64,000 nt of DNA from a virus. Made by a program: the position numbers and the translations under genes. The stretch covers positions 1 to 64,000 of IMG/VR virus record IMGVR_UViG_3300036771_000090; one strand, given 5' to 3'. The notes under the pieces are model-generated. The model worked only from the letters and a program-made list of their open reading frames with translations, ran no database searches and was not told where the DNA came from. Numbering within the stretch: the stretch's first letter is position 1; each line of letters begins with the position of its first letter. This document shows positions 7,032 through 64,000 of the stretch, one piece after another.

Positions 7032-7033
7032 CG

Positions 7034-49085: not shown

Positions 49086-49200
49086 GTGGCTTTCCTCGCT
49101 CCGTCTTAACCCAAACTGTGCGCTTCCGTACGAAGAACGCAAAGGGCCCGTGCCGGAGGACTTCCGGCCGGGCCCGTGCGCGGGGTTCCGCTCCTGCCCG

Positions 49201-50106: not shown

Positions 50107-50136
50107 GTCTTCACCTCTTCCTGGTTCCTGTGGTGC

Positions 50137-50265
50137 TCAGGGATTCAGCGGCTTGCCGCACGTGGAGCAGTACGAAGATCCGGACGTGTTCGAAGCCCCG
50201 CAGGAGGAGCAGTACACCGGGCCCGGCGTGGACATCAGCCGGACCAGCACGGCGATCAGCTTCAC
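50137..50265 (-). CDS. 42-aa zinc-ribbon peptide
   Basis: Manual translation ...YCSSCGASNTSGSSYCSTCGKPL; shared leader upstream. Confidence 0.6.
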   Translation of the reverse strand: MKLIAVLVRLMSTPGPVYCSSCGASNTSGSSYCSTCGKPLNP

Positions 50266-50311
50266 GGCCCATCCCTCTCTTCCTGGTTCCTGGTGGTACG
50301 ACTTCCGCCGG

Positions 50312-50659
50312 TCAGTTGCCCGTCGGGGACGGGGTGACCGGAACCGGGACCGCCTTCGTCCCGGTGCACATCCCGGCCGGCGCGCTGAAGACCTTCACGT
50401 CCGCGGCCACTCCGTCATGGGTGGTGGAGGTGAAGGCCATGCCGGGGAAGCCGTACAGGCACTTCGCGCAGACGTTGGAAAATTCGTCCGGCATGTTGGT
50501 GCAGAAGGCCGGGCTGTCGTCCCCGGACCGGGCGGCCACCGGCGCGTCTCCCTTGCCGCGCTTGTCGTTGCGGCTGTCGCACGCGGCGCCGGTGACGACC
50601 AGGGACACCACCAGGGCAACGGCGGCCAGTACACGCCGGACGCGCTTGCTGATCTTCAC
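50312..50659 (-). CDS. Lipoprotein
   Basis: KRVRR + hydrophobic stretch + GAAC lipobox; GAGGA RBS. Confidence 0.65.
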   Translation of the reverse strand: MKISKRVRRVLAAVALVVSLVVTGAACDSRNDKRGKGDAPVAARSGDDSPAFCTNMPDEFSNVCAKCLYGFPGMAFTSTTHDGVAADVKVFSAPAGMCTGTKAVPVPVTPSPTGN

Positions 50660-50694
50660 GGATTCCTCGCTTCCAGTGCCGGGACTTCCGGCGG

Positions 50695-50768
50695 TGCGCC
50701 CGGCAGGACTCGAACCTGCGGCCCCCATATCCGTAGTACGGTGCTCTGTCCACCTGAGCTACGGGCGC
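50695..50768 (-). tRNA. tRNA-Arg(ACG)
   Basis: GCGCCCG acceptor, D arm GCTC/GAGC, anticodon loop CTACGGA, T arm GCAGG-TTCGAGT-CCTGC; no encoded CCA. Confidence 0.9.
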
Positions 50769-50806
50769 TTGCGCGGGATTTACGGCTCCCGGCGGCCGTG
50801 GAGCGG

Positions 50807-51082
50807 TCAGTCCGCGGCGGGGGTGTTGCGCAGCTCCTCCAGGTCCGGGGCGGCCGGGCCGTCCCCGTAGGTGAAGTACGTGCCGATGACCTTCAGCTTC
50901 CGTTCGGTGGTGGTCAGGTTGCCGTCACCGCTGACGGAGGTGACGCTGACCGTCCCGTCTTCCAGGTCCCCCAGGTGGGCCGCCAGCCCGGCCGCGATGT
51001 CCGCCCGGCTGGGGAGCGCGACCCGGGCGCCGGCCTCCACGTCCACCGTGATGTTCAGCCGTGCGATCTTCCGTTTTGCCAT
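50807..51082 (-). CDS. Hypothetical protein
   Basis: GAGGA RBS. Confidence 0.6.
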   Translation of the reverse strand: MAKRKIARLNITVDVEAGARVALPSRADIAAGLAAHLGDLEDGTVSVTSVSGDGNLTTTERKLKVIGTYFTYGDGPAAPDLEELRNTPAAD

Positions 51083-51174
51083 GATTCCTCACTTCGTGGG
51101 TTCCGGCCCGGCCAGTGACCCCCGCGTGGCCGGGGTGGTTCTCCGCGCGCTCACCGTGCACGGTGTGGGGGTCG

Positions 51175-51250
51175 TGGTGCGCCCGACAGGATTCGAACCT
51201 GTGACCTGCTGGGTTTCACTCAGCCGCTCTTCCAACTGGGCTACGGGCGC
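51175..51250 (-). tRNA. tRNA-Phe(GAA), atypical
   Basis: Cloverleaf with encoded CCA; loop GTGAAAC; mismatches in D and anticodon stems. Confidence 0.8.
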
Positions 51251-51328
51251 CCTATTCAGTTTTGTCCGATCGGCCTAAGTAAATCAGCCTCCGGTTCTGC
51301 CCGGAAGCAGGGGTACGTCACGGAACGG

Positions 51329-51649
51329 TCACGCCTGGCGGGTGATGGCCCAGCGGCTGTGATCGAGCGCGACCATCCGTACCTCCCGGCCGGTGACGAC
51401 ATCCTGGCAGGTGAGGTTCCAGACGTCGTACGGCTTTCCGTCGCGGATCGCGGTCCCGGCGGTACGGTCCTGGACGGACAGGCGCCGCTTGCACTCCACG
51501 TCCTTCTGGCCAGCGCGGCGCGTCTCCATGTAGACCTGGACGAAGACGTCCCCGGCGCGGAGCTGGCGCGTGTAGACCACCATCAGCACTTCCGGCGCGG
51601 TCTCCCCGGTCTCCACGGCAGCCTCTCCGATCGTGGCGGTGTCGGTCAT
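51329..51649 (-). CDS. Hypothetical protein
   Basis: Shared leader; ATGA coupling. Confidence 0.6.
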   Translation of the reverse strand: MTDTATIGEAAVETGETAPEVLMVVYTRQLRAGDVFVQVYMETRRAGQKDVECKRRLSVQDRTAGTAIRDGKPYDVWNLTCQDVVTGREVRMVALDHSRWAITRQA

Positions 51650-52002
51650 GGTCCCTCTTCCTTGTTCCTGTCAGAACGGCGCTGCTCCAGGCGGCGCGCG
51701 TTGTGTGCCTTCAGGCACTTGGGGTCGGTCTGCTCCAGGCGGCGCCGGTGGCGCTGGTACGCCCGGTCGGTACCGCAGTCCGGGTACCGGCCCAGGATGC
51801 CGTCCAGGATGGCGATCCGCACGGCATCCGTCATATTCCGGGCACCCAGTTTGCGGATGACGCTGGCGCCCTGGTTCTTCACGGTCTGGACGTGGACCCC
51901 GCGCCGGGTGGCAACGGAGCCGTACGTCAGACCGTTGGCCAGGAGGAACAGAACCTGGGTCTCAGCGGCCGTGAGCAGGACTCCGGTCCTGGGGCGCCCC
52001 AT
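51646..52002 (-). CDS. LuxR-type HTH protein with C-terminal Cys/His motif
   Basis: LTAAETQVLFLLANG...TVKNQ...KLGA; DCGT..AYQRH...C. Confidence 0.8.
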   Translation of the reverse strand: MGRPRTGVLLTAAETQVLFLLANGLTYGSVATRRGVHVQTVKNQGASVIRKLGARNMTDAVRIAILDGILGRYPDCGTDRAYQRHRRRLEQTDPKCLKAHNARRLEQRRSDRNKEEGP

Positions 52003-52319
52003 CAGAGCCGGAAGCGGCTACAGCGGGCGCACAGCGGCTCCCGGCGGCTGATGTGCCGCAGCCGTGCTTCGTCTGTGCCGCAGTCCCGGTACTGGCCGAT
52101 GATCCCGCGCGACATGGCCACGTGGACGGCCTGGGCCATGTTGTGGACCTCCAGCCGGGCCCGGATGCGGCGGCCCGACTGCTCCGCCGCGTTCCGGGTG
52201 ATCCCGGCGCCGTGCGCCACGGCCGGCCAGACCTTCCCCTGGGAGATGAGCCAGAGACAGATCCATTCCTGCCGGGTCAGCGGCGTGCCGGGCTTGGTCG
52301 GCCAGTGCCTGGTGGGCAT
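52002..52319 (-). CDS. LuxR-type HTH protein with C-terminal Cys/His motif (paralogue)
   Basis: LTRQE..CLWLISQG...RL.VHNMAQAV; DCGT...RH...EPLCARC. Confidence 0.75.
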   Translation of the reverse strand: MPTRHWPTKPGTPLTRQEWICLWLISQGKVWPAVAHGAGITRNAAEQSGRRIRARLEVHNMAQAVHVAMSRGIIGQYRDCGTDEARLRHISRREPLCARCSRFRL

Positions 52320-52341
52320 GGCTTCCTCCTTCCTGTTCCAG

Positions 52342-52386
52342 CACCCCCGGCAGGATTCGAACCTGCGGTGTCCGCCGTACGGGGGT
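52342..52386 (-). ncRNA. tRNA-like minihelix / tRNA 3'-half remnant
   Basis: ACCCCCG...GCAGG-TTCGAAT-CCTGC-CGGGGGT: acceptor stem plus T arm with only 13 nt between. Confidence 0.5.
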
Positions 52387-52420
52387 CCCCGGGATCACGG
52401 CTCCCGGCTGCCGTCGTGCG

Positions 52421-52867
52421 TCAGTCCTCCACGACCACCGGAAGCGGGGCCGGCCTGTCGTCGCTCTTGCGGTACCAGGCCAGACCCCCGTCTTCCGGCC
52501 GCTTCTCGAAGGGGTCCATGTCGTCCGCGATGACCAGGGCGTTCCGGTGGACACCGGGCATCCGGGAGAGGAGATACCGCACCCGCAGTGCCTCCGCCTG
52601 GGCATGGACGATCAGGTCCGGGGCCCACTCGATGAACCGGGCCAGGATCTCCAGCTCCGATTCGTCCCCGTCCCAGGCGGCCGAATCATGCTGCTCCCCG
52701 ACCGTGTCGGCCAGAAGGTCGTTGACCTTGTCGGCCAGCTCCCGGTACGCGGCGTCGTCGCTGGCGGCCAGGATCTCTCCGGCGACGTCCGCCATGATCC
52801 GTTCGGCCTCCGCCTTGCTGCGGCGGGTGTTGGTGATCAGGGCCGTGACCAGTCCGCGCTGGGTCAT
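52421..52867 (-). CDS. Hypothetical protein
   Basis: GC3-biased acidic ORF. Confidence 0.55.
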   Translation of the reverse strand: MTQRGLVTALITNTRRSKAEAERIMADVAGEILAASDDAAYRELADKVNDLLADTVGEQHDSAAWDGDESELEILARFIEWAPDLIVHAQAEALRVRYLLSRMPGVHRNALVIADDMDPFEKRPEDGGLAWYRKSDDRPAPLPVVVED

Positions 52868-53152
52868 CGCGTCACCGCCAGACCGGTAATGAAGATCATC
52901 ACTGGTTCCTCTCTTCCCTGGTTCGGAGCTGGGTGCCTGACAGGGGGTCACGTACGGGACGCGCCCCCGACCGGCGGACAGTTCACGATGCAGTCGGTCC
53001 CCGGAACCTGCGGGTGGACACCGTCCGGGCGGTACCCGGCGGACGGCGGTCGGGCCCGGGAAGGTTGTCCCCGGGACGCTTGGAGTACGGGCCTTCGTTG
53101 CCCACCGGGACCTCATGTCCCCGGGCGGTGGGCCGCTGCCACCAGCGCGACA

Positions 53153-53384
53153 TCAGTTCAGCCGGGCCATGACGCGCTGGTCCTCCAGGGACCAGTTGGA
53201 CAGGGTGGCCAGCGGTTCTCCCAGGGAGCACAGGTCTTCGATCTCCTGGGTGCCGCCGCTGGCCGCGTCCATCACGGTGAAGCACTGGCCGCACTCCGTC
53301 ATGTGGCCGGCCCAGTTCCGGTACGCCTCCGCGTACGGCAGGGTGGGCACCAGGTTCATCGGGGGGGATGTGCAGACCGGACAT
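53153..53384 (-). pseudogene. Small Cys/His protein whose RBS-linked start is out of frame at a C7 tract
   Basis: ATG 53384 after AAGAAGGAA is 1 nt out of frame with ORF 53359-53153; G7 at 53361-53367. Confidence 0.45.
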
Positions 53385-53413
53385 AGGGTTCCTTCTTCCT
53401 GGTGGTGCGGGGA

Positions 53414-53806
53414 TCAGAGCAGGTTCCCCCACTTGTCGGTCGGGGGCACCATCACCGGAACCTGGCGCGGACCGTCCGCCAGGAAGCCGCACTGCGCGTC
53501 GGCGGTCACTTCCGCCAGGAACTCCGCCACCCGGGCAACCGGGATCTTGCTGGACGACGGAGCCACCCAGGGCGCGTTCTGCCGTTCGGCCCAGTACACC
53601 GGGCGCTCCGTGGCCGCGATGTTCAGGAACCGGTACCGCGGATACACCTTGCCCGGCCACCAGTCGGACGGGGTGTTCTCCGGGGTGAGAGCTATCAGGG
53701 TGAACGGCGGGCGGAACCGGCCGCGTCCCGTCTGGCTCCAGCCGGCATCCTTCAGCGCACGGACGACGTCCTGGAGCTTCTCCCGCGGTGTCTGCCTGGG
53801 TGCCAT
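53414..53806 (-). CDS. Hypothetical protein (first gene of cassette P1)
   Basis: Directly behind conserved promoter/leader. Confidence 0.65.
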   Translation of the reverse strand: MAPRQTPREKLQDVVRALKDAGWSQTGRGRFRPPFTLIALTPENTPSDWWPGKVYPRYRFLNIAATERPVYWAERQNAPWVAPSSSKIPVARVAEFLAEVTADAQCGFLADGPRQVPVMVPPTDKWGNLL

Positions 53807-53885
53807 CGGTTCCTCTTCCTGGATTCCTGTTCTGCTGCTGGTTCTATCCTCTCGCAGGTCAGGATGTATGTCAAGTTATGTCCAA
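53807..53885 (-). promoter_or_regulatory. Conserved early promoter-leader module P1
   Basis: TTGACA (53874-53869)-17-GAGGAT; leader CAGCAGCAGAACAGGAATCCAGGAAGAGG. Confidence 0.75.
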
Positions 53886-53918
53886 CGCTTTGACCTGCGA
53901 GAATGAAGATTCTTTACG

Positions 53919-54644
53919 CTACTTCTCCCCGCGGAGGTTCCGGCGGATCTCCGCCTGGCGTTCGTCGGATACCGATCCGGTGACCCCGCCCGGCGTCATG
54001 CCCAGCCCGGTACCGGTGGCCATGAAGCTGCCGGAGCTGGAGTACCCGCGGGGGTCTCCTCCGTTCCGTACGCGCTCCTGGTGCTCCGCCCGGCACTGCT
54101 CCACCCAGGCTGCCTCCTCCACGCGGACATGGCCGCCGGACCCCAGCGCGTCCAGGAGGATGCGGGAGGCGATACGGAACAGCCGGCCGCGCGGACCCCC
54201 GTCCGCACTGCCGCTGGAAGCGGCGTACATCCGCTCCCGGCACAGGGAGCAGTGACAGCCGTCGGTCTGCTCCGCGTACGGCGCGAAGTCCTCCCGGCCG
54301 GGCGCCGGGGAGTCCCAGATCAGGTACCGGATGTCGCGCCGGACCATGACGTGGTGGCCGTCCCAGACGCGCATGGCCTCCGGTGTGCCCAGGTACCGGA
54401 TCTGCCCGAAACTGGACAGCGTCCGGTCTTCGAAGCGCACCGCCCGGGACACCTGGCGGCGCGTCACCGGAGCGGCGAACCCCTCCGTCTCCCGGACGCT
54501 GCCGGACATGGCCACGAACCAGCCGGCCCCGTGGTTCGGCTCCATGAAGATCGAACCGATCTCCAGATCGGGGAACAGCGTCATGTTCCACTGGTCCCGG
54601 GCGAAGCCTTCCACCGGGACCAGGATGTGGTCCGGGGTCGTCAT
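53919..54644 (-). CDS. Hypothetical protein
   Basis: ATGA coupling to WYL gene. Confidence 0.6.
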   Translation of the reverse strand: MTTPDHILVPVEGFARDQWNMTLFPDLEIGSIFMEPNHGAGWFVAMSGSVRETEGFAAPVTRRQVSRAVRFEDRTLSSFGQIRYLGTPEAMRVWDGHHVMVRRDIRYLIWDSPAPGREDFAPYAEQTDGCHCSLCRERMYAASSGSADGGPRGRLFRIASRILLDALGSGGHVRVEEAAWVEQCRAEHQERVRNGGDPRGYSSSGSFMATGTGLGMTPGGVTGSVSDERQAEIRRNLRGEK

Positions 54645-55099
54645 CGCGCACCGGCCCACAGGGGCGCCTGGTGCAGCGGGCGGACAGCGGCCACGCGGAC
54701 CGGACGCGGCCAGGAGCCGTGCGCCACGGTGAGCGGGGTCGGGCGGTCCGCCTTCGCCAGCTCCGCGGCACGCCGGGTCTCCGCCGCGGTGGGGACGTTG
54801 GAACGGGGCTTCGACGCCGGCACCGGGTAGCGGTGACGGGACTTGCTGCCGTGCACGGTGTAGGACACGATCCGGTCCAGCCGGAAGGTACGCGGCTCCG
54901 CGGTCGGGCGGTCGGCCGTCGGCCGGTCCATCGCACGGAAGTAACGGTCCCCGTCCTGGTTCTTCGTGATCATCCAGGGCTCCACCACCCGGCGCGTCAC
55001 GGACCCGTTGGCACGGGTGTAGATGATGGTCACGGGGCGCCGGAGCTTCATGGCCCGGACGATGTTCCGGAAGAGCTTGTCCTGGTCGGTGGCCTGCAT
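54641..55099 (-). CDS. Stand-alone WYL-domain protein
   Basis: VTIIYTRANGSVTRRVVEPW...YFRAMD...PRTFRLDRI; no N-terminal HTH. Confidence 0.85.
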   Translation of the reverse strand: MQATDQDKLFRNIVRAMKLRRPVTIIYTRANGSVTRRVVEPWMITKNQDGDRYFRAMDRPTADRPTAEPRTFRLDRIVSYTVHGSKSRHRYPVPASKPRSNVPTAAETRRAAELAKADRPTPLTVAHGSWPRPVRVAAVRPLHQAPLWAGAR

Positions 55100-55182
55100 C
55101 GGGTCCTTCTTTCCTGGTTCCTGTGCTGCTGTGGTTCCATCATCCCGCGTGTACTGATCTATGTCAAGTGATGACACAGATC
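55100..55182 (-). promoter_or_regulatory. Conserved promoter-leader module P2 with palindromic operator
   Basis: TTGACA (55167-55162)-17-GATGAT; GATCTATGTCA-N5-TGACACAGATC. Confidence 0.8.
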
Positions 55183-55190
55183 GAATGAGA

Positions 55191-55272
55191 CAGGGCGACA
55201 GGAATCGAACCTGACACCGGCTCCCACTCCTCCCCGCAGGGAGAAGGCTGGTCACCCTCCCACGATGCCCTG
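55191..55272 (-). ncRNA. tRNA-like structured RNA (T arm plus acceptor-like stem, non-tRNA core)
   Basis: CAGGGC...CAGG-TTCGATT-CCTG..GCCCTG; internal hairpin CTTCTCCC-TGCG-GGGAGGAG. Confidence 0.45.
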
Positions 55273-55429
55273 ACCCAGGATGCCTCCCGGGCTTCCAGCT
55301 CCAGCGCGTCCGCCGTGCGTACTCCCGACCGGTCATGATCCGGTACCTCCAGCTTGAGAGGCTGGTGGGCATCCTTTACCCCACGGGAGCGGGTTGGACG
55401 GGATTACGGCTCCCGCCGGGCCGTCGTAC

Positions 55430-55636
55430 TCAGACGCTCTTCGTGGACGCGCGGCGCTCCGCGGTCTCCGCGATCTGCCGGGCCAGCGGACTGCCGGAGA
55501 CGATCCCCACCAGGCCGGTGAACATCCCGGTGCCGGGGTCCGTGGTGACCTGGAGACCGGCGCCGGAGGCGAAGGTCCGTGCGGCGAAGGCCGCGTACTG
55601 GTCCAGCGTGCTCTCCTGGTACGGGAATACCGCCAT
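55430..55636 (-). CDS. Hypothetical protein (cassette P3)
   Basis: Behind conserved leader. Confidence 0.65.
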   Translation of the reverse strand: MAVFPYQESTLDQYAAFAARTFASGAGLQVTTDPGTGMFTGLVGIVSGSPLARQIAETAERRASTKSV

Positions 55637-55715
55637 GCTGTCCTCTTCCTGGGTTCCTGTGCTGCTGTGGGTTCTATCGTCCCGCATCCAGTCGTCTATG
55701 TCAAACTATGTTCAT
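55637..55715 (-). promoter_or_regulatory. Conserved promoter-leader module P3
   Basis: TTGACA (55704-55699)-17-GACGAT; CACAGCAGCACAGGAACCCAGGAAGAGG. Confidence 0.8.
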
Positions 55716-55743
55716 CGCTCTGACCTGCGGTGGAGAAACCCGT

Positions 55744-55959
55744 TCATGATTCTTTGGCGAAATGGACTTCCACCGGGCGCGCGTCGTTGAGCGCGGTGGC
55801 GATGGCCTGGGCCACGGAGATGTCCGTGTACCGGGCCACGATGTCCTCCACGGTGCGCGCCGGAACACCCGGCCGGCGGATGACGGACCTGCGGACCACC
55901 ACAGCGTCCTTCAGACGCTGGCGCGTCTCGTACTTCACGGTCATCTTGTGTGCGGGCAT
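55744..55959 (-). CDS. Hypothetical protein
   Basis: AGGAATCCAGGAAGGG leader. Confidence 0.55.
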   Translation of the reverse strand: MPAHKMTVKYETRQRLKDAVVVRRSVIRRPGVPARTVEDIVARYTDISVAQAIATALNDARPVEVHFAKES

Positions 55960-56001
55960 GTGGGGGCTGCCCTTCCCTTCCTGGATTCCTGGTACAGACG
56001 T

Positions 56002-56038
56002 CAGCCCCCGGCGGCCGGGAGACGGCCGCCGGGGGCTG
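56002..56038 (-). terminator. Terminator-like hairpin
   Basis: CAGCCCCCGGCGGCCG / CGGCCGCCGGGGGCTG. Confidence 0.7.
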
Positions 56039-56049
56039 CTGGGCTGCTC

Positions 56050-56214
56050 TCAGCCCTGTTGTCCGGTGCTGATGTACTCCGCCGCGATGGACAGGTTCTC
56101 CTCCACGAAGCGCGTGTGCTGCTCCGGACGGCATTCGGTCCGGTCGCATTCAATCGCCTCACGGATCACTTCCGCAACGAACTTGCCCGTGTCGGCCACG
56201 GTGGTCCTGATCAC
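56050..56214 (-). CDS. Small hypothetical protein
   Basis: AGGAGG RBS; GTGA coupling. Confidence 0.5.
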   Translation of the reverse strand: MIRTTVADTGKFVAEVIREAIECDRTECRPEQHTRFVEENLSIAAEYISTGQQG

Positions 56215-56411
56215 ATCGTCCTCCTGTCCGGCAGACTGCTCACGAAGGCGGCTTTCGTCCGCCACGCGGCCCCGCACTGTGTGCAGCGGACCAGGGAGTA
56301 CGGGGACCAGGTCCGCCGGTTTCCGCTGAAGGCGCTGTAATGCGCGTTCCTGATCACGACCACCCAGAAGTCCCGGTGGCCGCGGTCCCGGCACGCCAGT
56401 CCGTCGCTCAC
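56211..56411 (-). CDS. Small Cys/His hypothetical protein
   Basis: GTGA coupling; HYSAFSG...YSLVRCTQCGAAWRT. Confidence 0.55.
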   Translation of the reverse strand: MSDGLACRDRGHRDFWVVVIRNAHYSAFSGNRRTWSPYSLVRCTQCGAAWRTKAAFVSSLPDRRTM

Positions 56412-56767
56412 CGCCGGGCCGTCCGTTCCGTCCGGCAGCCGCACCCGGTCTGGGAGCAGGTGTCCATCTCTTCGGTGTCGGGCCCGTGATCCGGGTGGCC
56501 GCAGAACCGGCAGGTCTCCAGCCGGTCGTACACCCGGTCAGCCATGATCATGTCCAGCACGGCTTTCCAGGCGTCCGCCTCCTTCTGCCACTGCCGGGTC
56601 AGCCGGCCCAGCGCGGCAGCGCGGGCTTCGGTGGGAACCGCGGCGCTCCACCGGAACCGGTACGCCTCCGTCTTCCTGACCGCCTCCGCGTAGGAGAACC
56701 GGATCTGGGCCTCCACGTTCGCGGTGACCCGGGGGCCGGCGGCCGGACGGCTGTGCGGGGTGGTCAT
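56408..56767 (-). CDS. Hypothetical protein with C-terminal Cys cluster
   Basis: GGAGG RBS; ATGA coupling. Confidence 0.55.
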   Translation of the reverse strand: MTTPHSRPAAGPRVTANVEAQIRFSYAEAVRKTEAYRFRWSAAVPTEARAAALGRLTRQWQKEADAWKAVLDMIMADRVYDRLETCRFCGHPDHGPDTEEMDTCSQTGCGCRTERTARR

Positions 56768-57732
56768 GAGACAGCCTCCAGGCCGCAGGAACCAGCAGTG
56801 ATCCCGGTAGCTGCGGTGATGAGCGACCGGGCGAACAGGGGGGGTACGACATTGCCGGCAAGGGTGTACCGCTGTCCCGCGTTGCCATGGATGACCAGAT
56901 CCCGCCTGAGTCCGTTAAGAGCGGCGGCTTCGGCGACGGTAGGGCGCAAGTGCGGGAGACTGCGCTCTTTCCACCGGTCGGTTCCCATCGCTTTGCGCAT
57001 GGCCTGGCGGGACCCGTTGCCGAATGGCTCCGCGCCGCCGGTACTTGTTCCGCCGCTGGTAACGGTGGGTGCGGGGCGCTGGGTGTAGCCCCAGCCGATG
57101 ATGTCGGCCATGGCGACCAGCGGGGGCTGGCCGGTCCCGCCGTGGGTGGGTTCGGGCAGGATGACCCCGTGCATCCGGGATGCCAGGAGAACGGCGCGGG
57201 GCCGGTGCGATCCGAGTCCGAACCGGGCCGCGTCAAGAACTCCGGTGGTCACGGAGTAACCGTGGTTCCGGAGGATGCCGGCGTAGTGCTCCCACACGGA
57301 AAGCACGCTGGGCACCTGTTCCATGGCGATCCACTCGGGTTCGAGATCATGTATCCACCGCATGGGTTCAGCGGTGAGAATGCTCCGGGAGTCAAGGCAC
57401 CGGGCCCCGTGCTGTGCACGGGTGTCGTGGCCGCTGGCCAGGTCGTCAATCGCTGAGCAGATGTGCGGAAGGTCGTGGCGGCCTTTCCCGCTGCCCATCC
57501 TGGAGAACGGGGGGCACGGCGGGGACCAGATACCGCCCCAGGTACGGCCACGGAACGGCGCGGTGGGGTACTGGCTCACGTCACAGCGGATGGTCGGATG
57601 CCCGGCGCCGGCCCGGGTGCGGCAAGCGCTCTCACTGAGTTCCAGCCCGGTATCAGACAGGCCAAGCCCGCGGAGGGCTTCGGACCAGCCGATGCCCGCG
57701 AAGCCGTGGACGATACGGCCGGCGGCCGTCAC
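56764..57732 (-). CDS. DNA cytosine-C5 methyltransferase (orphan)
   Basis: FAGIG (I), SPPCPPFS (IV), MEQVP (VI), HRPR (VIII), AGNVVPP (X); GTG start coupled to upstream stop. Confidence 0.88.
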   Translation of the reverse strand: MTAAGRIVHGFAGIGWSEALRGLGLSDTGLELSESACRTRAGAGHPTIRCDVSQYPTAPFRGRTWGGIWSPPCPPFSRMGSGKGRHDLPHICSAIDDLASGHDTRAQHGARCLDSRSILTAEPMRWIHDLEPEWIAMEQVPSVLSVWEHYAGILRNHGYSVTTGVLDAARFGLGSHRPRAVLLASRMHGVILPEPTHGGTGQPPLVAMADIIGWGYTQRPAPTVTSGGTSTGGAEPFGNGSRQAMRKAMGTDRWKERSLPHLRPTVAEAAALNGLRRDLVIHGNAGQRYTLAGNVVPPLFARSLITAATGITAGSCGLEAVS

Positions 57733-58889
57733 CGGCCCGGCTCCGCCCACTGGGCACCGATACCGGCCAGCCAGGCGGTGACCAGCTCCTCCGCCATCCG
57801 CTGCGCGGTCAGTGCGTCGTTGTGGCCTCTCAGGTGTTCCGGGACGTAGACCGGGAGAACAGTGCTCACCACGTAGTTCGGATCGGTCCGCCGGGACTTC
57901 CAGCTCAGGGAGACCAGTTCGACACCGTTGGAGCGGCCCCGGTACCCGGACCCTTCGGTCCTCCTCCAGACGATCGGGGTCCCCGGGTACGCCTCCTCCA
58001 GCGCGTCGGCCAGGAACTGGCGGCGCCCCAGACGCTGCTCCTCCACGGTCCGGATCACGCGGATCTTCACCGCGTCGCGGTACACGGCGGAGTACGACGT
58101 TCCGGGCCGCCCGTCGCCCGGAAGCCGGTAGCTGACCGAGTCGTCCGTGATCTGCTCGATCCAGCCGGTGGCCTTCGAGCCGGACAGTTTCCAGGACAGC
58201 TCCACTTCGTCCCCCTCCTGGACAGCCTGGGCCGCCCGGGGCGCCGGGTTGCTCTCGCTGCACCGGGTGTGGCCCAGGTCGTAGCAGTCGTGGAAGGGGA
58301 GCCGGTCCGCGTCCGTCTTGAAGTCCGCGATGAAGGCCGTACCGTCCGCCAGCGTTCCGGCCAGGTCGGGCTGGTACTCCGTCAGCGGGTACGTCCAGGA
58401 GGCGCTGAAGACGTCTCCGCAGATCTTCACCACGTCGTCCCCGGTCTTCCAGGCGTGACCGGGCTGGACCTTCCAGACCTCCGGGGCACCGTTCACCTGG
58501 ACGGTGATCTTGTTGGCTCCCCGGACACCGGTGACGCTGCCGCGCGGAGTGGACGGGGTGGTCCCGAAGAAGTGCTGCGACAACAGATACGCCTCCGCCG
58601 TGGCGGAGATCTCTTCGTGGCTGGCCGCCAGGCGCTCCACTTCCTCCAGCGCCTCCGCCGGGGTCAGCCGGCCAACGGCGTCCGCCGGACGCTCGGTGCC
58701 GGCCGCAGCCCAGCCGGCCGCGGTGAGGTAGTGGCCCATCTCGCCGTCGTGCCGGCCGTACTCCACCAGCCCGCGGTCCATCAGCGCCACCCTGGTTCCG
58801 GTCCTTCCGGAGTTCAGGTACTGCCATCCGCGGTTCCGCGCGAACGCGTCCAGCATGTTCATCATCACGGGGGAGAGCTTCCTGGCCAT
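57729..58889 (-). CDS. Cassette paralogue 1: wHTH-like N-terminus + RPAD linker + variable C-terminus
   Basis: KLSPVM...TRVALMDRGLV...LTAAGW...RPADAVGRLTPAEALE. Confidence 0.7.
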   Translation of the reverse strand: MARKLSPVMMNMLDAFARNRGWQYLNSGRTGTRVALMDRGLVEYGRHDGEMGHYLTAAGWAAAGTERPADAVGRLTPAEALEEVERLAASHEEISATAEAYLLSQHFFGTTPSTPRGSVTGVRGANKITVQVNGAPEVWKVQPGHAWKTGDDVVKICGDVFSASWTYPLTEYQPDLAGTLADGTAFIADFKTDADRLPFHDCYDLGHTRCSESNPAPRAAQAVQEGDEVELSWKLSGSKATGWIEQITDDSVSYRLPGDGRPGTSYSAVYRDAVKIRVIRTVEEQRLGRRQFLADALEEAYPGTPIVWRRTEGSGYRGRSNGVELVSLSWKSRRTDPNYVVSTVLPVYVPEHLRGHNDALTAQRMAEELVTAWLAGIGAQWAEPGR

Positions 58890-59021
58890 CAGTTCCTTCT
58901 TCCTGTTCCGCCGGTGGTGGGGACCGGCCGCCGTGCGACCCCGGTACGTGGTGTCCCCGGTCGATGCTCCCGGCATCTCGTTGGCGTCCGGTCCCCGTCC
59001 CGGTCTCCCGGGCACAGCTCT

Positions 59022-59062
59022 ATCTTCCCGTACTCCAGTGTCTATGTCAAATGATGTCCAAC
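59022..59062 (-). promoter_or_regulatory. Conserved promoter module P4 (long structured leader 58890-59020)
   Basis: TTGACA (59050-59045)-17-GAAGAT. Confidence 0.75.
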
Positions 59063-59109
59063 GCTGTGAGCTGCGACAATGAAACCAGTTCATGATTCTT
59101 TGACACAGG

Positions 59110-59139
59110 GAAGCCCCCGGACGGCTGTCCGGGGGCTTC
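59110..59139 (-). terminator. Terminator-like hairpin
   Basis: GAAGCCCCCGGAC / GTCCGGGGGCTTC. Confidence 0.8.
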
Positions 59140-59157
59140 AGGGGCGGTACGGCTGGG

Positions 59158-60279
59158 CTACTCCTCCAGCGCGTCGTCCAGTACGCGCCGCAGCGCGCGC
59201 AGGTCGTCCAGCGTCAGCCCCGGGCAGCCGGGCGTCCGGCCGATGATGATCCGGCTGCCGCTTTCCTGGTCCAGGCTCTCCAGCACGGCGTGGAAGTTGT
59301 CCACGACGTCCGGGACGTGCTCCGGGACGGTCTCCGGGACGGTCTCCTTCTCCTCCACCGGCAGCGCGGTTCCGGACAGGTCGGTCTTCACCGCTCCGGC
59401 GTACGTCCGGTACCCCTGGCTCTTCAGGTGGTCGAAGTGCTCCTGATGACCGGCGCACAGGAGCGACACCTTCCCGTCGGACCACACCACCCGGACCACC
59501 GCCGGGGCTCCGCAGCCGGTCCCGTTGCCGCTGGTGGTCTCCGGCACCTGGCCGGCCGTGCAGCGGGGGTTCTCCTTCACGCACACCATGTCCCCGTGGC
59601 CGGCCTGGAGCATGGCGTCCCGGGTGGCCCAGGCCGTCCCGCACTCGCACTCCACGGATTCGTCCGCCTGCTCCGGCTCCAGGTCGTCCACGAACTGCCG
59701 CGTGTCACTGCTCCAGGGGATGGTGTCGGTCGGGTCCATGTGGACCGTGACGTACGTGCGTCCGTGGTTCGGGTGACCCGGATTGTCCACCACGCCACGG
59801 TTCTCCTGCCGCACCGTTCCCGTCCGGCCGCGGTAGCCGGTGTTCGCGTCCAGACGGATCTGGACCCGGGTCCCCATCGGCCACGATTCGTCCAGGGCCG
59901 GGACGTCCATCACCGTGACGCGCGCCTTCGGGTCCCAGTGCATACCATCCCCGGGGCGGATTCCCCGGCAGCCGGGGAATCCCCAGCCGTTCAGCCGCTC
60001 CGCGTACTCCAGCGCTTCGGCCGGCGTCATCCTGCCGTCGTCCGCCGGACGCCCGGTCCCGGACAGCTCCTGGACCAGGGTCCAGCCGGCGGGGGTGAGG
60101 ACCGGGAACAGCCAGGCGTCCCCGTCCTTGTCGGTCACGTTGTGCTGGTAGGTGATCAGACCCCGGTTGATCAACGCGTCTTCCGTGCGGTTGTTGCAGT
60201 AGGCCACGGTCCCCTGGTACCCGTTCTCCGCGGCGTGCCGGAGTTCTGCTTCCATCTTCGGGGAGATGCGAACGGCCAT
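59158..60279 (-). CDS. Cassette paralogue 2
   Basis: RISPKM...TEDALINRGLI...LTPAGW...RPADDGRMTPAEALE; SH3-like and Cys-rich C-terminal parts. Confidence 0.75.
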   Translation of the reverse strand: MAVRISPKMEAELRHAAENGYQGTVAYCNNRTEDALINRGLITYQHNVTDKDGDAWLFPVLTPAGWTLVQELSGTGRPADDGRMTPAEALEYAERLNGWGFPGCRGIRPGDGMHWDPKARVTVMDVPALDESWPMGTRVQIRLDANTGYRGRTGTVRQENRGVVDNPGHPNHGRTYVTVHMDPTDTIPWSSDTRQFVDDLEPEQADESVECECGTAWATRDAMLQAGHGDMVCVKENPRCTAGQVPETTSGNGTGCGAPAVVRVVWSDGKVSLLCAGHQEHFDHLKSQGYRTYAGAVKTDLSGTALPVEEKETVPETVPEHVPDVVDNFHAVLESLDQESGSRIIIGRTPGCPGLTLDDLRALRRVLDDALEE

Positions 60280-60363
60280 CGGGTCCTTCTTTCCTGGGTT
60301 CCTGTCGTGCTGTTGGTTCCATCTTCCCGCACCTGCTTGTCTATGTCAAGTCATGTCATAGAC
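60280..60363 (-). promoter_or_regulatory. Conserved promoter-leader module P5
   Basis: TTGACA (60349-60344)-17-GAAGAT; GTCTATG..CATAGAC arms. Confidence 0.8.
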
Positions 60364-60382
60364 CATTTGCACAGGATGCAAA

Positions 60383-60415
60383 CGGCCCCCGGGAGGGTTG
60401 TCCTCCCGGGGGCCG
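60383..60415 (-). terminator. Terminator-like hairpin
   Basis: CGGCCCCCGGGAGG / CCTCCCGGGGGCCG. Confidence 0.8.
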
Positions 60416-60431
60416 CCGTGCTCCGGCCGGG

Positions 60432-61319
60432 TCAGCTCTTCCAGGGGCCCATGACGGCCACCATCTCCCCCTTCTCCAGGGTCCGGACGTTCCCGTCCGC
60501 GCGGGTGATGACCACCAGCTCCGGCGTGACCTCCCTGCCGTCGCGCCAGACGCTGTACTCCGCGGTCTTCAGCTCCACGGATGCGATCGTCCAGGCGGCT
60601 TCGAATCCGGGGCGGACGGCCCAGTACCGGTACCCGGGCTTGAAGTCCTCCGCGGCCAGCTCCGTGATCGCGGGCTTCTCCGCGGCCGGCTCCATGTCCT
60701 CCAGCCGGACGTACACGATGGTCTGGTGGTCGTCTTCCCGGACCGCGTGCAGACCGTTGCGCCAGTAGGACACGTACCGGGCGGTGAAGGCCGGCTGGGG
60801 AACCCAGGTCCGGTTCCAGGTGTCGAAGTGCGACTGCCGGACGATGACCTGGTCGTCCCTGGTGTAGGTGCGCTCTCCCGCTGCCGGGTACGCCTCCGCC
60901 AGCGCCTCCTCCACGGTCAGCCGGTCAGCGTCTTCCGCAGCACCCGGGTACAGGGTGCGAGCGTCCAGGATCGCGTCAAGTTCGGAGTAGCTGTACCCCG
61001 TCATGCCGTCCCGCCAGGCCGCGTCCGCCAGCGCCTCCTCCACGGTCAGCCGGCCGGTGTCCGCCGGACGGTCCACGCCGTGCTCTGCCAGCCACGACCA
61101 GCCCGCCATGGTGATGACCAGGATGTGGCTGGCACCGTACGTCGGCTTCGGGTGGTCGGTCAGCTCCAGCAGACCACGGGAGACCAGCGCCTTCGCGGTG
61201 GTGTTCCGGCCGTTGAAGACGACCCGGTCACTGCCGTACTTCGCCTGGGTGGCGGCCACGTTGGTCAGGTACTGCCCCATGGTCTGGCTGAGCTTCGGGG
61301 ACTTGGCGGTGACGATCAT
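60432..61319 (-). CDS. Cassette paralogue 3 (linker motif duplicated)
   Basis: KLSQTM...TAKALVSRGLL...ITMAGW...RPADTGRLTVEEALA...DRLTVEEALA. Confidence 0.75.
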   Translation of the reverse strand: MIVTAKSPKLSQTMGQYLTNVAATQAKYGSDRVVFNGRNTTAKALVSRGLLELTDHPKPTYGASHILVITMAGWSWLAEHGVDRPADTGRLTVEEALADAAWRDGMTGYSYSELDAILDARTLYPGAAEDADRLTVEEALAEAYPAAGERTYTRDDQVIVRQSHFDTWNRTWVPQPAFTARYVSYWRNGLHAVREDDHQTIVYVRLEDMEPAAEKPAITELAAEDFKPGYRYWAVRPGFEAAWTIASVELKTAEYSVWRDGREVTPELVVITRADGNVRTLEKGEMVAVMGPWKS

Positions 61320-61402
61320 CGGGTCCTTCTTTCCTGGGTTCCTGTGCTGCTGTGACTCCATAGTTCCGCGAATCCTGGTCTATGTCAAGTCATGTCATAG
61401 AT
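61320..61402 (-). promoter_or_regulatory. Conserved promoter-leader module P6
   Basis: TTGACA (61388-61383)-17-AACTAT. Confidence 0.8.
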
Positions 61403-61414
61403 TATTTCCCAGGA

Positions 61415-61458
61415 CACAGGCCGGCCCGGGAGGACAGTTCCTCCCGGGCCGGCCTGTG
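61415..61458 (-). terminator. Terminator-like hairpin
   Basis: CACAGGCCGGCCCGGGAGGA / TCCTCCCGGGCCGGCCTGTG. Confidence 0.8.
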
Positions 61459-61462
61459 CTGG

Positions 61463-62137
61463 TCAGACCGCTTCCACCGATATGGTCTCCAGCTCCGGGA
61501 TAGATCCCAGTTCGGGACGCACCGCAAGCAGCTTCCGCGCGATGCGGCGGACCGCGGGGAAGGACGGGACGGGCGGGTTTGCGTGCAGACCGGACAGCGT
61601 GCTGAACACGTAGGTGTACGCCTCATAGTCATCCTGGGTGACGCGTCCGGTGTGGTACTGGTCCTCCAGACTGCCCAGCGTCAGCCTGCTCATACGCAGG
61701 ACATCGCAGTCTTCGCAGCGCAATTCAAGGTGCCGGTTGCCGCTTCCGGTGTAAGCGATGTCGCACATGATCCGGTCTGACGCGTTGTGCATACGACAGT
61801 CCGTCACGGTACGGGCGGTCCGGTCTTCCACGCTGTCCAGCGCCTCTTCCACGGTCAGCCGACCGGCGTCCGCCGGGCGGTCCATGCCGTATGCGGCCTT
61901 CAGGAAGGCCCAGCCGTCCAGCGTGACGGTCCAGAGCAGCGTGGTGTCGTGGACCCGGTACTCACCCAACGCACCCAGTTCCGCGTTCGTGGACCAGCGG
62001 ATCATCCCGCGGCGCTCCAGCGCCAGGAGCGTCCGCTTCTCCGGCTCCAGGTGCGCCCGGTAGGCTCCGCGGCCCAGGTAGACCAGCGCCTCCTCCATGG
62101 TCTGGCTGAGCTTCAGGGACTTGGCGGTGGCGGTCAT
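61463..62137 (-). CDS. Cassette paralogue 4
   Basis: KLSQTM...TLLALERRGMI...VTLDGW...RPADAGRLTVEEALD; Cys-containing C-terminus. Confidence 0.75.
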   Translation of the reverse strand: MTATAKSLKLSQTMEEALVYLGRGAYRAHLEPEKRTLLALERRGMIRWSTNAELGALGEYRVHDTTLLWTVTLDGWAFLKAAYGMDRPADAGRLTVEEALDSVEDRTARTVTDCRMHNASDRIMCDIAYTGSGNRHLELRCEDCDVLRMSRLTLGSLEDQYHTGRVTQDDYEAYTYVFSTLSGLHANPPVPSFPAVRRIARKLLAVRPELGSIPELETISVEAV

Positions 62138-62220
62138 CGGGTCCTTCTTTCCTGGGTTCCTGTGCTGCTGTGACTCCATAGTCCCGTGAATCCTGGTCTA
62201 CGTCAAGTCATGTCATAGAT
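62138..62220 (-). promoter_or_regulatory. Conserved promoter-leader module P7
   Basis: TTGACG (62206-62201)-17-GACTAT; near-identical to P6. Confidence 0.8.
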
Positions 62221-62239
62221 TCTTTCCGGGACACGGCGA

Positions 62240-62267
62240 AGCCCCGGGGGACCGGGCCCCCGGGGCT
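62240..62267 (-). terminator. Terminator-like hairpin after transfer/spread operon
   Basis: AGCCCCGGGGG / CCCCCGGGGCT. Confidence 0.7.
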
Positions 62268-62281
62268 GCCTGTACCACGTC

Positions 62282-62695
62282 TCACCTGCGGCGCTTCCCC
62301 TTGCCCTTCGGCTCCTCCAGGGTCTCCCGGAGTGACTTGATCGCGGCAGCGCTTCCGATCATCAGCACGGCCACCGCTCCGACGGCCGCAGCCGCCGCGA
62401 TGACCAGCGCCACCACGGAACCCAGGACAGCGATCAGGACCGGCGCCAGGATGACCGCGATCACGGCCAGACCGCCGGTGATGACCAGTCCGCCGAGAAG
62501 GACGAAGAAGTACGGGACGTACCGGTCCAGGACGTTCTGACCGGGATTCTGGTTCACCGGCGCCGTGTCGATCACCGGCGCCGCGTAGTGGTGGTGGATG
62601 TGGATGACCTGGTCTCCTCCGGGGATCTGGCCCGTCTCCCCTGCCGAAGGCAGGTAGGTGGTCCGGTGGACCACCGCCTTGCGCTGCTCTTCCAT
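62282..62695 (-). CDS. Membrane protein, SpdD-like plasmid spread protein
   Basis: Pro/His N-terminus, long hydrophobic hairpin, basic tail; downstream of traB-like gene. Confidence 0.5.
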   Translation of the reverse strand: MEEQRKAVVHRTTYLPSAGETGQIPGGDQVIHIHHHYAAPVIDTAPVNQNPGQNVLDRYVPYFFVLLGGLVITGGLAVIAVILAPVLIAVLGSVVALVIAAAAAVGAVAVLMIGSAAAIKSLRETLEEPKGKGKRRR

Positions 62696-62701
62696 GCTTC
62701 C

Positions 62702-62803
62702 TCACATCCAGTGCGACACGGCCCAGACCGCTGCCAGGAACAGCAGAACGATCACGGCCAGGGTGCGGTTGGCACGCCACCGGGCCGACCGCCTGTGACT
62801 CAC
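62702..62803 (-). CDS. 33-aa single-TM peptide
   Basis: Manual translation MSHRRSARWRANRTLAVIVLLFLAAVWAVSHWM; GTGA coupled. Confidence 0.45.
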   Translation of the reverse strand: MSHRRSARWRANRTLAVIVLLFLAAVWAVSHWM

Positions 62804-63003
62804 GGGCGGGCCCGGCGCCGGACCACGGCGTACAGCGGCGCGGTGATGATGGCGTCCGCCACGACGATGAACACGATGGCCAGGAAGGTGGCCGCCACCG
62901 GACTGTTGACCTTGTCGCCCGGCAGCAGCGAAGCCACCATGGCGATCAGCAGCAGCACGGCCGCCGCGTGGACGAAGTAGATTATTTCCTTGATCGCTCG
63001 CAT
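62800..63003 (-). CDS. Small two-TM membrane protein (Spd-like)
   Basis: AAGGAAG RBS; two hydrophobic segments. Confidence 0.55.
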   Translation of the reverse strand: MRAIKEIIYFVHAAAVLLLIAMVASLLPGDKVNSPVAATFLAIVFIVVADAIITAPLYAVVRRRARP

Positions 63004-63076
63004 GATCGTTTTCTTCCTTCTCGGGTGTCTGACGCGGGTTGTGACGGATCGGGAGAGTGTCTTAGGTCGGAGCCGG

Positions 63077-63173
63077 TGTCAGCGGTCTGACAGGCGTTTC
63101 TGACAGCCTTCTGACAAGGGCTGACACCGGCTCTGACATGCGGTTCTGACAGGTACTGACACCGGCTCTGACA
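63077..63173. repeat. Phased CTGACA direct-repeat array (candidate clt/TRS locus)
   Basis: CTGACA at 63087, 63100, 63111, 63121, 63133, 63146, 63156, 63168; inverted copy at 63077. Confidence 0.8.
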
Positions 63174-63179
63174 GGGTCT

Positions 63180-64000
63180 TCAGTTGGCCCGGTGGCCGTT
63201 TCTGATACGGGGGCGGACGACGTACGGGGGCTTGCCGTTGCTGGTCTCCAGGCGGCCGGCTTCGGTGAGGCGCTTCAGCTCCGCGTACACCCACTGCCGG
63301 GTCCGGCCGGTGATGCCCGGAAGCTCCGACAGTGCTTCGAAGGTGATTTCCGCGGCGCCGCCTGCCTCCAGTTCATCGATCTTGGCTTCCAGGGCCGCGC
63401 GTGCGTCCGCGGTGGACATCCGGCCGCCCGCGGGCTCCGGACGGAGGCTGAAGGACCCGGCAAATCCGGGGTCCGGGATGGGTTCGGTCACGTCGATCAG
63501 GGCTCCGTCTTCGTCGGGGACCGCGGTCAGGTCCAGCGCCTGCTCCCGGTCGTTGTCGGTTTCGCCGTACCAGTTCACCGGGTCTTCGTCCGGTGCCGGG
63601 ACGTCCAGGGGGACCGGGGGCAGACCGGCGGTCAGCTTCGAGTCCGGCACCTGGATGCCGGCCCCCAGGCACATGGCCGTTCCGGGGTCCAGAACGGCCC
63701 AGAAGGGCCGGCTGGCGTCCAGTTCGGCACGCTTCTGGGTCCTGGTCAGCCGCAGTGCACGGCCTTCCACCGCCCACAGCGTCCGGTCGGTCCCGATCGA
63801 CTCCGCGTAGTGCTTGCCGGGGAAGTCGGCACCCCACTTGGTGGGGTCTGCTCCGGCTTCCCGGGTGGTCGCGGACAGGGTGAACTTGGCGTCGTAGTCC
63901 TCCCGGCAGCCGAAGGCGAGTGCGTTGGCGAACAGACCGCGGGTCCGGCGGTCGATGTTCTGGTTGTGGGCGGTCTGCATGGACGCGAAGATGGCGAAGC
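63180..64000 (-). CDS. traB: Streptomyces TraB-like (FtsK/SpoIIIE-family) conjugal DNA translocase, C-terminal part
   Basis: ALAFGC...DAKFTL...EAGADPTKW...PGKHY, acidic Pro linker, C-terminal wHTH GRTRQWVYAELKRL.EAGRL; 5' end off window. Confidence 0.75.
   Translation of the reverse strand, partial: FAIFASMQTAHNQNIDRRTRGLFANALAFGCREDYDAKFTLSATTREAGADPTKWGADFPGKHYAESIGTDRTLWAVEGRALRLTRTQKRAELDASRPFWAVLDPGTAMCLGAGIQVPDSKLTAGLPPVPLDVPAPDEDPVNWYGETDNDREQALDLTAVPDEDGALIDVTEPIPDPGFAGSFSLRPEPAGGRMSTADARAALEAKIDELEAGGAAEITFEALSELPGITGRTRQWVYAELKRLTEAGRLETSNGKPPYVVRPRIRNGHRAN

Follow-up and report, generated by a model that had tools for sequence, protein, structure and literature searches.

Four tandem genes, here termed P0001 to P0004, lie on the minus strand of a window of 64,000 nucleotides, which is bases 1-64000 of IMG/VR virus record IMGVR_UViG_3300036771_000090, a tailed actinophage from soil with siphovirus-type genes. 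Our favoured reading, which we rate at somewhat better than even, is that the four are separately transcribed paralogues with a common winged-helix N-terminal domain (the head) and mosaic C-terminal parts (the tails), arranged in cassettes that resemble the promoter-early stem-loop (PeSL) cassettes of T4-type phages. The shuffling of domains and genes is real and, as far as it can be followed in the sequences, unusually clean. The genes and their parts are given below; gene starts were set at the ATG that follows the ribosome-binding site GGAAAGAAGGA, and the longer reading frames of P0003 and P0004 start inside the presumed -10 region.

62137..61466, minus strand: P0004, 224 aa; winged-helix head at residues 1-112 (61802-62137)
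61466-61801, minus strand: P0004 tail, cysteine (Cys)-containing, otherwise found only in a near-identical relative
61319..60435, minus strand: P0003, 295 aa; head at residues 1-109
P0003 past the head: second junction-like motif at residues ~131-147, module m4 at 156-211, module m1 at 215-295
60279..59161, minus strand: P0002, 373 aa; head at residues 2-104, module m2 at 105-206
P0002, C-terminal parts: Cys-rich, weakly DUF7455-like segment at residues ~234-301, then an acidic tail
58889..57732, minus strand: P0001, 386 aa; head at residues 2-90
P0001 past the head: module m15 at residues 159-197, module m11 at 221-308, second junction-like motif RRQFLADALEEAYPG, C-terminal module at ~306-383

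The first ~100 residues of the four proteins align with 23 invariant columns (S6, M9, L13, T32, A35, L36, R39, G40, T56, G59 and W60, followed by R67-P68-A69-D70, G73-R74, T76 and E79-A80-L81) at a pairwise identity of 31-47%, and they end in the motif RPADxGR(L/M)TxxEAL, after which the four sequences diverge. A first-pass annotation of this DNA, made from its letters alone, had described four tandem genes with a common N-terminal domain and an RPADxGR motif followed by unrelated sequence, and this description stands: BLAST of the N-masked sequences detected no similarity among the tails of the four paralogues. A hidden homology among modules m1, m2, m4 and m11 was also considered and rejected (hhalign probabilities <3%), and the module pairs that did score high with hhalign (m4-m5, m3-m13 and m2-m16) are adjacent segments with overlapping edges.

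An AlphaFold2 model of P0003, built on a 43-sequence alignment, reached a predicted local distance difference test (pLDDT) score of 90-97 at residues ~10-80. It contains a helix (12-28), a short turn, a second helix (40-47), a beta hairpin (51-69) and a third helix (71-79), and continues with the RPADTGR loop and a helix at 93-105, the latter with a pLDDT of about 78. In an exhaustive structural comparison with VIA-align, winged-helix proteins made up nearly the entire match list and MarR-family chains scored Z 8.5, 8.3 and 8.0, among them MarR 3nqo (Z 8.5, root-mean-square deviation (rmsd) 3.3, 71 residues aligned) and E. coli MarR 5h3r (Z 8.0, rmsd 2.5, 67 aligned). The Foldseek matches of the head were weak (E 0.09) and were likewise to MarR. 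The head is therefore predicted, with high confidence, to consist of a MarR-like winged helix, the invariant RPADxGR loop and an xxEALxxA(Y) helix, and the earlier proposal of a winged helix-turn-helix (HTH)-like N-terminal domain is borne out by the model.

The likeness to MarR regulators covers the fold of head residues ~5-83 (Z 8.0-8.5, rmsd 2.5-3.3, 67-71 aligned). MarR proteins typically show the pattern L-x-x-RGLI, a wing and LT-x-x-G, and the head has the same pattern. Unlike these regulators, it has a reduced helix ahead of the recognition helix, is acidic and, in place of the long MarR dimerisation helices, has one short conserved helix after the RPADxGR loop. It also lacks a match to the Pfam MarR families, both for the full-length proteins at E up to 1 and for the head alone at E up to 0.05.

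The first-pass annotation had asked whether the N-terminal domain might prove to be a known single-function family, and no Pfam, NCBIfam or PADLOC match was obtained for it. In full length, the proteins exceeded no curated cut-off in Pfam or NCBIfam and had no PADLOC match; the N-terminal domain scanned alone had no Pfam match and a sole, weak PHROG match (phrog_12781, E 0.007), and a profile search of solved structures with the head returned matches at E 0.6-0.7 only. In 1.84 billion representative proteins, a profile of the four heads found only 85 clusters (50% identity), and for 51 of these E was <=1e-10; some of the weakest matches, to Plectin or chitin-binding repeats, are false positives. 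Family members are 75-1124 aa long and the head is mostly N-terminal. Judged by these searches, the head is a protein family previously undescribed in the searched libraries.

In a 78-sequence alignment, the most conserved positions were S11, M14, L18, T41, A44, L45, R48, G49, T70, G73, W74, L77, R84, P85, D87, G89, R90 and A96, of which R84, D87, R90 and A96 were conserved at 95-100%. In the same alignment, variation was seen throughout the wing and at positions 42, 43 and 46, which are exposed on the recognition helix. The residues invariant across the family are located in the RPAD-GR-EAL segment and at positions that are buried or act as caps. The heads of the family have a median pI of 5.7 and a net negative charge, and all four proteins of the array are acidic, with net charges of about -5 to -21 (P0002 about -21).

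The RPADxGR motif had been proposed as a recombination junction linking the constant domain to its variable partners. This proposal has to be given up: the junction is itself the best-conserved stretch of the head, and about a dozen stand-alone family proteins (75-137 aa) end with RPADxGRxTLxEALxEAY. Because these stand-alone forms end with it, the junction is the conserved closing element of the head and not an inter-domain linker. The N-terminal alignments stop 0-10 residues past EAL in 426 of 738 family pairs, which places a domain border there. The recurrence of the junction DNA that had been noted, twice within one gene, was confirmed at the following positions, with weaker copies in the two other genes.

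61020-61066, minus strand: junction-helix DNA of P0003, ADTGRLTVEEALADA
60891-60937, minus strand: copy at the second motif in P0003
61829-61875, minus strand: copy in P0004
60001-60047, minus strand: weaker copy in P0002
58638-58684, minus strand: weaker copy in P0001

Among codons for the same residue, 54 of 71 (76%) were identical in the junction and 94 of 144 (65%) in the rest of the N-terminal domain. The junction DNA as a homogenised recombination site was rejected on this comparison, in which the numbers are small, and conserved residues together with codon bias account for the repeat in the DNA. The motif also recurs without a winged helix, in P0003, in P0001 (RRQFLADALEEAYPG) and in some ten relatives; these additional copies may be functional repeats or scars left by earlier fusions. 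A similar motif was seen in the product of the large gene upstream of the array, residues 179-199 of which carry LRPEPAGGRMSTADARAALEA, conserved in the related locus G001 (see below), resembling RPADxGRLTxxEAL and preceding a C-terminal winged-helix-like segment of this product (63180-63980). It was not retained as a true relative of the junction, with an hhalign probability of 0.7%, which is not significant, and the resemblance may be due to chance.

A constant head on variable, shuffled tails had been proposed from the four genes, and this is supported by the wider family, where a few dozen uncultured relatives hold the small tail domains in other combinations. The P0004-type head (18 clusters, grouped by single linkage at >=55% identity) occurs with about 15 tail architectures and also with none. 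Conversely, modules from the tails of P0001, P0002 and P0003 were found behind different heads, headless or as a gene of their own. The m1 tail of P0003 (57-86% identical) stands behind three other head types; the relative P0006 combines a P0004-type head with the P0003 tail, P0010 a P0001-type head with the same tail, and P0007 and P0008 carry the P0003 tail without any head. These results show that the family evolves by exchange of whole tails and of modules, together with gene gain and loss. In Streptomyces phages that have been isolated, hypothetical proteins such as Xkcd426 gp64 and Mischief19 gp75 end in module m2, which matches phrog_15616, and its presence there suggests an actinomycete host. 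Two genes after gp64, Streptomyces phage Xkcd426 encodes gp66 (L009:3366-3731), a 121-aa hypothetical protein. A distant relationship of gp66 to the head, at 20 bits with 18 proteins searched and without RPAD, was kept as a lead only.

Tail modules were delimited by all-against-all BLAST of family members with the head masked, which gave 28 tail-module families of 30-140 aa. Each tail of the array consists of one to three small modules, beta-rich or Cys-rich, with no detectable enzymatic family. No tail segment matched a Pfam or PHROG family of known function, and scans of the four proteins against Pfam, NCBIfam, PADLOC and PHROG detected no domain linked to enzymes, toxins, secretion or defence. 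Zinc-finger modules, of the C2H2 or the phage type, are present in some relatives. Of the labels given earlier to the tails, the Cys-rich segment was seen in P0002, whereas the SH3-like label was weakly supported: P0001 matched Pfam SH3_15 at E 0.04-0.06, and an ESM Atlas model of P0002 residues 127-208 resembled the SH3-like C-terminal barrel of NHase-beta (nitrile hydratase) with a template-modelling (TM) score of 0.59. Residues 234-301 of the same protein resembled DUF7455 (TM 0.54); the ESM Atlas feature matches were all <0.9 and are leads only. Module m1 is modelled as a five-stranded beta unit, for which the pLDDT was 84-94 within the full-length protein and 72-81 on its own; in the latter form its best structural Z was 3.8, small beta-barrels (chromodomain, TRCF-RID and Sm-like) scoring Z 2.3-3.0, and it was assigned to no fold. 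Module m4 is unfolded in the model (pLDDT about 30).

We then consider the DNA between the genes. The first-pass annotation had assigned a TTGACA promoter to each gene and a hairpin to all but P0001, and both assignments hold. Exact copies of the 24-mer TCTATGACATGACTTGACATAGAC stand at 60339-60362 and 61378-61401, and a copy with a single mismatch at 62196-62219; no match arose in 100 shuffles. Three genes therefore carry it with 0-1 mismatch, and P0001 has a variant block. The form of these promoters is that of the sigma-70 type (-35 TTGACA, 17 nt, -10 GAnnAT). The transcription signals and the gene that follows P0001 are as follows.

62227..62279, minus strand: hairpin after the upstream small membrane-protein gene, directly before the P0004 promoter; -37.5 kcal/mol, z -2.5
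62138..62220, minus strand: P0004 promoter and leader; dyad GTCTATGaCA-N5-TGACgTAGAC over the -35; -10 GACTAT; leader ...CAGCAGCACAGGAACCCAGGAAAGAAGGACCCGATG
61409..61462, minus strand: terminator-type hairpin after P0004; -54.4 kcal/mol, z -8.4
61320..61402, minus strand: P0003 promoter and leader
60378..60421, minus strand: terminator-type hairpin after P0003; -42.4 kcal/mol, z -5.4
60280..60363, minus strand: P0002 promoter and leader
59104..59146, minus strand: terminator-type hairpin after P0002; -30.4 kcal/mol, z -4.2
58890..59102, minus strand: variant (type B) promoter of P0001; upstream box AAAGAATCATGAAC.GGTTTCAT, longer leader, variant block at 59041-59052
56767-57750, minus strand: C5-cytosine DNA methyltransferase gene (Pfam E 3e-12)
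62197-62220, 61379-61402, 60340-60363 and 55158-55181: dyad sites; in G001 (L005) at ~10993-11023 and ~13398-13428
59041-59102, 55695-55756 and 53865-53930: sites of the second promoter type; in G001 (L005) at ~9885-9940 and ~13370-13423

The hairpins (-30 to -54 kcal/mol) stand 10-25 nt ahead of the TTGACA blocks. They are GC hairpins that the consensus terminator scan missed because they have no T run. No hairpin was found after P0001 (z -0.9), which runs into the methyltransferase gene; the start of the latter lies at or slightly before the P0001 stop and no hairpin separates the two, and they are probably co-transcribed. These signals predict four independent transcription units for the four genes. 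The P0003 and P0004 blocks are particularly close: their promoters, leaders and first ~20 codons are 90% identical over 154 nt, whereas the remainder of the two heads is 57% identical, and this difference points to a recent duplication or conversion at the 5' blocks.

The -35 TTGACA forms the right arm of a dyad, GTCTATGaCA-N5-TGaCATAGAC, at three of the four promoters. In G001 the dyad is GGGTCCGTGTCA-N5-TGACACGGACCC, with arms unlike those of the window phage and the symmetry kept, which is as expected for a candidate operator co-evolving with its binder. In all, seven promoter blocks were located within 53865-62220, several of them ahead of non-family genes, namely a WYL-domain gene at 55099 and two small open reading frames (ORFs). 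In the second promoter type, the box AAAGAATCATGAAC.GGTTTCAT..CGCAGGTCA replaces the left dyad arm; it is conserved in both phages and may be the site of a second regulator. The WYL-domain protein (54644-55099, minus strand) is small, has no recognisable HTH and lies behind one of the repeated promoters. Two adjacent GerE/LuxR-type HTH paralogues lie at 51646-52394 (minus strand), with a single homologue in G001. Both the WYL protein and these paralogues are candidates for the binder of the promoter dyad.

Two related DNA loci were read, G001 and G002, the window phage being G000. G001 (IMGVR_UViG_3300021411_000005, 75.9 kb) is syntenic with the window, and its flanking genes are 48-68% identical to those of the window. 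It has a large upstream gene (54-58% identical), two small membrane-protein genes, two family genes, and then homologues of the window gene at 56050-56394 and of the WYL gene, so that at the same genomic position G001 holds two family genes and G000 four. In the first of the two, the head is P0004-like (68%) and is fused to module m2 of P0002. The second starts with an additional N-terminal module, after which come a P0002-like head (52%), a stretch rich in Cys, m15 of P0001 and m0. G001 is without the methyltransferase gene at the corresponding position. Its promoter-leader blocks are of the same type as those of G000, the two phages being too diverged to map DNA end points. The first-pass annotation had suggested comparing relatives for cassette number and C-termini; the relatives indeed carry other numbers of genes and other tails, the breaks falling at the border of the head, and by the criteria of that annotation this counts for the shuffling and not against it. 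At ~1% divergence the array is, however, fixed. G002 (IMGVR_UViG_3300015242_000183) is a 21-kb fragment with one family gene among PolA, primase and SF2-helicase genes. Next to it is a separate gene with a 93-aa product (L012:11775-12056), which over 78 residues shares 52.6% identity with the C-terminal module of P0001.

The stretch 55000-63000 was found nearly identical in contigs of three soil metagenome runs from different studies, of which one may be where the record comes from and another differs by about 57 single bases (about 1%). The soil contigs break at the repeated promoter blocks, as assemblies do; a joint from 62970 to 61020 in soil run X3 had a depth of 2 only and was disregarded. 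Other searches for relatives were negative: megablast of 54000-64000 and tblastn of P0003 and P0002 found no match in 50,697 phage records, tblastn of P0002 and P0010 found none in 72,556 plasmids, and pattern scans gave nothing usable in viral, metagenome or genome contigs, a 25% match in a Gemmataceae metagenome-assembled genome being spurious. A scan with the upstream large gene found G001 as the only relative.

The record as a whole is a 77,804-bp virus with direct terminal repeats and was judged complete. The window has a GC (guanine plus cytosine) content of 63-72%, its minus strand holds the genes from ~49200 to 64000, and among its other genes are the following.

6584-11200: primase-PolA fusion
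17191-18603: large terminase
37788-41204: tape-measure protein
46146-47117: Rv2525c-like glycoside hydrolase, lysin-type

Taken together, the reading that we favour is one in which the host RNA polymerase would read the array arm, probably early in infection. The repeated promoter-leader blocks (80-100% identical, up to 154 nt) would supply the homology for gain, loss and exchange of whole genes, and exchanges at domain borders would create new head-tail fusions. The head would supply one common activity and the tails target specificity. Because conservation lies on RPAD-GR-EAL, the recognition face and the wing are variable and the heads are acidic, we favour a head that docks to a common partner or self-associates, with at most paralogue-specific DNA contacts. 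The tails may bind different host or phage targets early, for takeover, regulation or counter-defence, and the proteins are probably early adaptors or regulators, acidic and non-enzymatic. A wider version of this idea, which is distinctly speculative, is that actinophages hold an arsenal of "one head, many tails", in which the head would dock via RPAD-GR-EAL on one common site and deliver swappable binding modules against host functions or defences, the cassettes being the substrate of recombination. The common docking site would, in this arsenal, be either a hub protein of the host or, at the early promoters, the co-evolving dyad operator.

Several observations weigh against the favoured reading. 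A winged helix with three invariant arginines is compatible with sequence-specific DNA binding, including binding to the dyad of its own promoter. The tail folds are poorly resolved in the models (m4 and m1). The "early" timing is read only from the sigma-70-type promoters and the position of the array. Lastly, the three soil runs have the same four-gene order, with no supported rearrangement at ~1% divergence, in contigs that drop rare variants.

The main and most attractive rival, to which we lend tentative credence only, is that the genes encode self-repressing anti-defence fusions of the AcrIIA1 and AcrIIA13-15 kind. The head would bind the dyad over its own -35 and shut a strong early promoter after a burst, and each tail would inhibit a different defence protein. 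AcrIIA13-15 share a promoter-binding N-terminal HTH and have divergent inhibitory C-termini (PMC7104187), and the array offers a parallel in the dyad over the -35 at three of four genes, in the G001 arms that differ with the symmetry kept, and in proteins that are small to medium in size, acidic, non-enzymatic, rapidly shuffled and encoded in an accessory region. However, the same block precedes non-family genes (the WYL gene at 55099 and two others), and its binder need not be the head. Moreover, the heads are only 31-47% identical and differ at the exposed recognition-helix positions, yet the promoters are nearly identical; the heads are acidic, and no similarity to known anti-defence families was found in the searched libraries. 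An ordinary expansion of paralogous phage transcription factors, each with its own DNA site and with tails that oligomerise or sense ligands, would account for the MarR-like fold and for the zinc-finger modules (C2H2 or phage-type) of some relatives. Such families usually conserve structural or possible backbone-contact residues, as R48, R84 and R90 are here, and vary at the putative base-reading positions. We nevertheless consider this expansion unlikely: the heads are net negative, match no Pfam DNA-binding family and have their strongest conservation on RPAD-GR-EAL and not on the DNA-reading face, and the extreme turnover of the tails, with modules that occur alone or headless, is unusual for sensor domains.

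Two further explanations have less in their favour. The proteins could be accessory to a neighbouring transfer-like locus, with heads that dock on its machinery or on repeat DNA, as the array begins two small membrane-protein genes downstream of the same large gene in both G000 and G001, and TGACA-type repeats are found both at 63109-63173 and in the promoter dyads. This is very improbable, given that the family gene of G002 has PolA, primase and helicase genes around it and no neighbour of this kind within the 14.8 kb read, that tblastn found no match of P0002 or P0010 in the 72,556 plasmids, and that the G001 homologue of the large gene (668 aa, L005:6934-8940) has no FtsK_SpoIIIE Pfam match at E<=0.001, a UbiA match being sub-threshold only. 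The analogy with polymorphic toxins drawn in the first-pass annotation, in which a constant delivery domain would carry swappable toxic C-termini with paired immunity genes, fared worse still and is hardly credible. It captures the outward arrangement only, in which a constant N-terminus and a conserved junction motif precede variable C-termini, but no toxin, trafficking or immunity part was found: the head is predicted to be a cytoplasmic-type winged helix, no signal or trafficking domain was detected in Pfam or NCBIfam, no tail segment matched a toxin or enzyme family in the scans, which would miss a toxin of novel fold, the junction is part of the head domain, and hairpin, promoter and next paralogue follow within ~150 nt of the stops with no intervening ORF for immunity.

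The array introduces a compact protein family outside the searched libraries. This family comprises one head, 28 or more tail modules and 85 clusters, and its sequences display the shuffling of domains almost openly, within a PeSL-like gene array. Its members form a tractable set of candidates for a part in early host takeover or counter-defence in Streptomyces-type hosts, for which few such functions are known. Should the head prove to be a common docking or self-regulating unit, the family would be a natural scaffold with which to trace what numerous orphan domains of phages act on.

Among known systems, the internal-protein loci of T-even phages are hypervariable and place a short N-terminal capsid-targeting sequence (~10 aa, cleaved) on unrelated proteins. 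They resemble the array as a variable locus whose genes share only an N-terminal element; here, in contrast, the shared part is a folded domain of ~100 aa, and nothing points to capsid packaging. Polymorphic toxin systems have in common with the array the constant N-terminal part, the conserved border motif and the variable C-terminal parts, and differ from it by the secretion or trafficking domain, the recognisable toxin and the immunity gene, none of which was found here, where the proteins look cytoplasmic and non-enzymatic.

Closer precedents exist, and the statement in the first-pass annotation that the architecture is not that of a described system was too strong in view of PeSL cassettes (PMC2839356) and AcrIIA13-15 (PMC7104187). 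AcrIIA1, AcrIIA13, AcrIIA14 and AcrIIA15 have a shared N-terminal HTH autorepressor and divergent C-termini (PMC7104187; PMC10901769). AcrIIA13-15 and the array have in common a shared N-terminal (winged-)HTH with unrelated C-termini, an inverted repeat at their own promoters and a place in an accessory region of a mobile element. No sequence relationship between them was found; the heads of the array are 31-47% identical under nearly identical promoters, several tandem genes occur per genome, and the tails are multi-module mosaics. PeSL cassettes of T4-type phages (Arbiol et al. 2010; PMC2839356; PMC4122927) differ in belonging to a T4-type myovirus and not to a high-GC actinophage with siphovirus-type genes. 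In the array, the repeat adds a conserved leader of ~35 nt with a ribosome-binding site and, for two genes, the first ~20 codons, and the genes between the blocks are paralogues. Recombination between the blocks has been shown for PeSLs (PMC2839356) and is a proposal here, with no mini-circles or supported joints in the soil contigs. In both systems, however, a stem-loop terminator lies directly before a strong sigma-70-type promoter, the unit is repeated in an accessory ("hyperplastic") region, single genes stand between the blocks (non-essential ORFs in the PeSL case), and related phages differ in gene content at this region, by gain, loss and replacement in the PeSL case and, in the array, with four genes in G000 against two in G001. 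The promoter-terminator-cassette mode of phage genome plasticity would thereby extend to high-GC actinophages.

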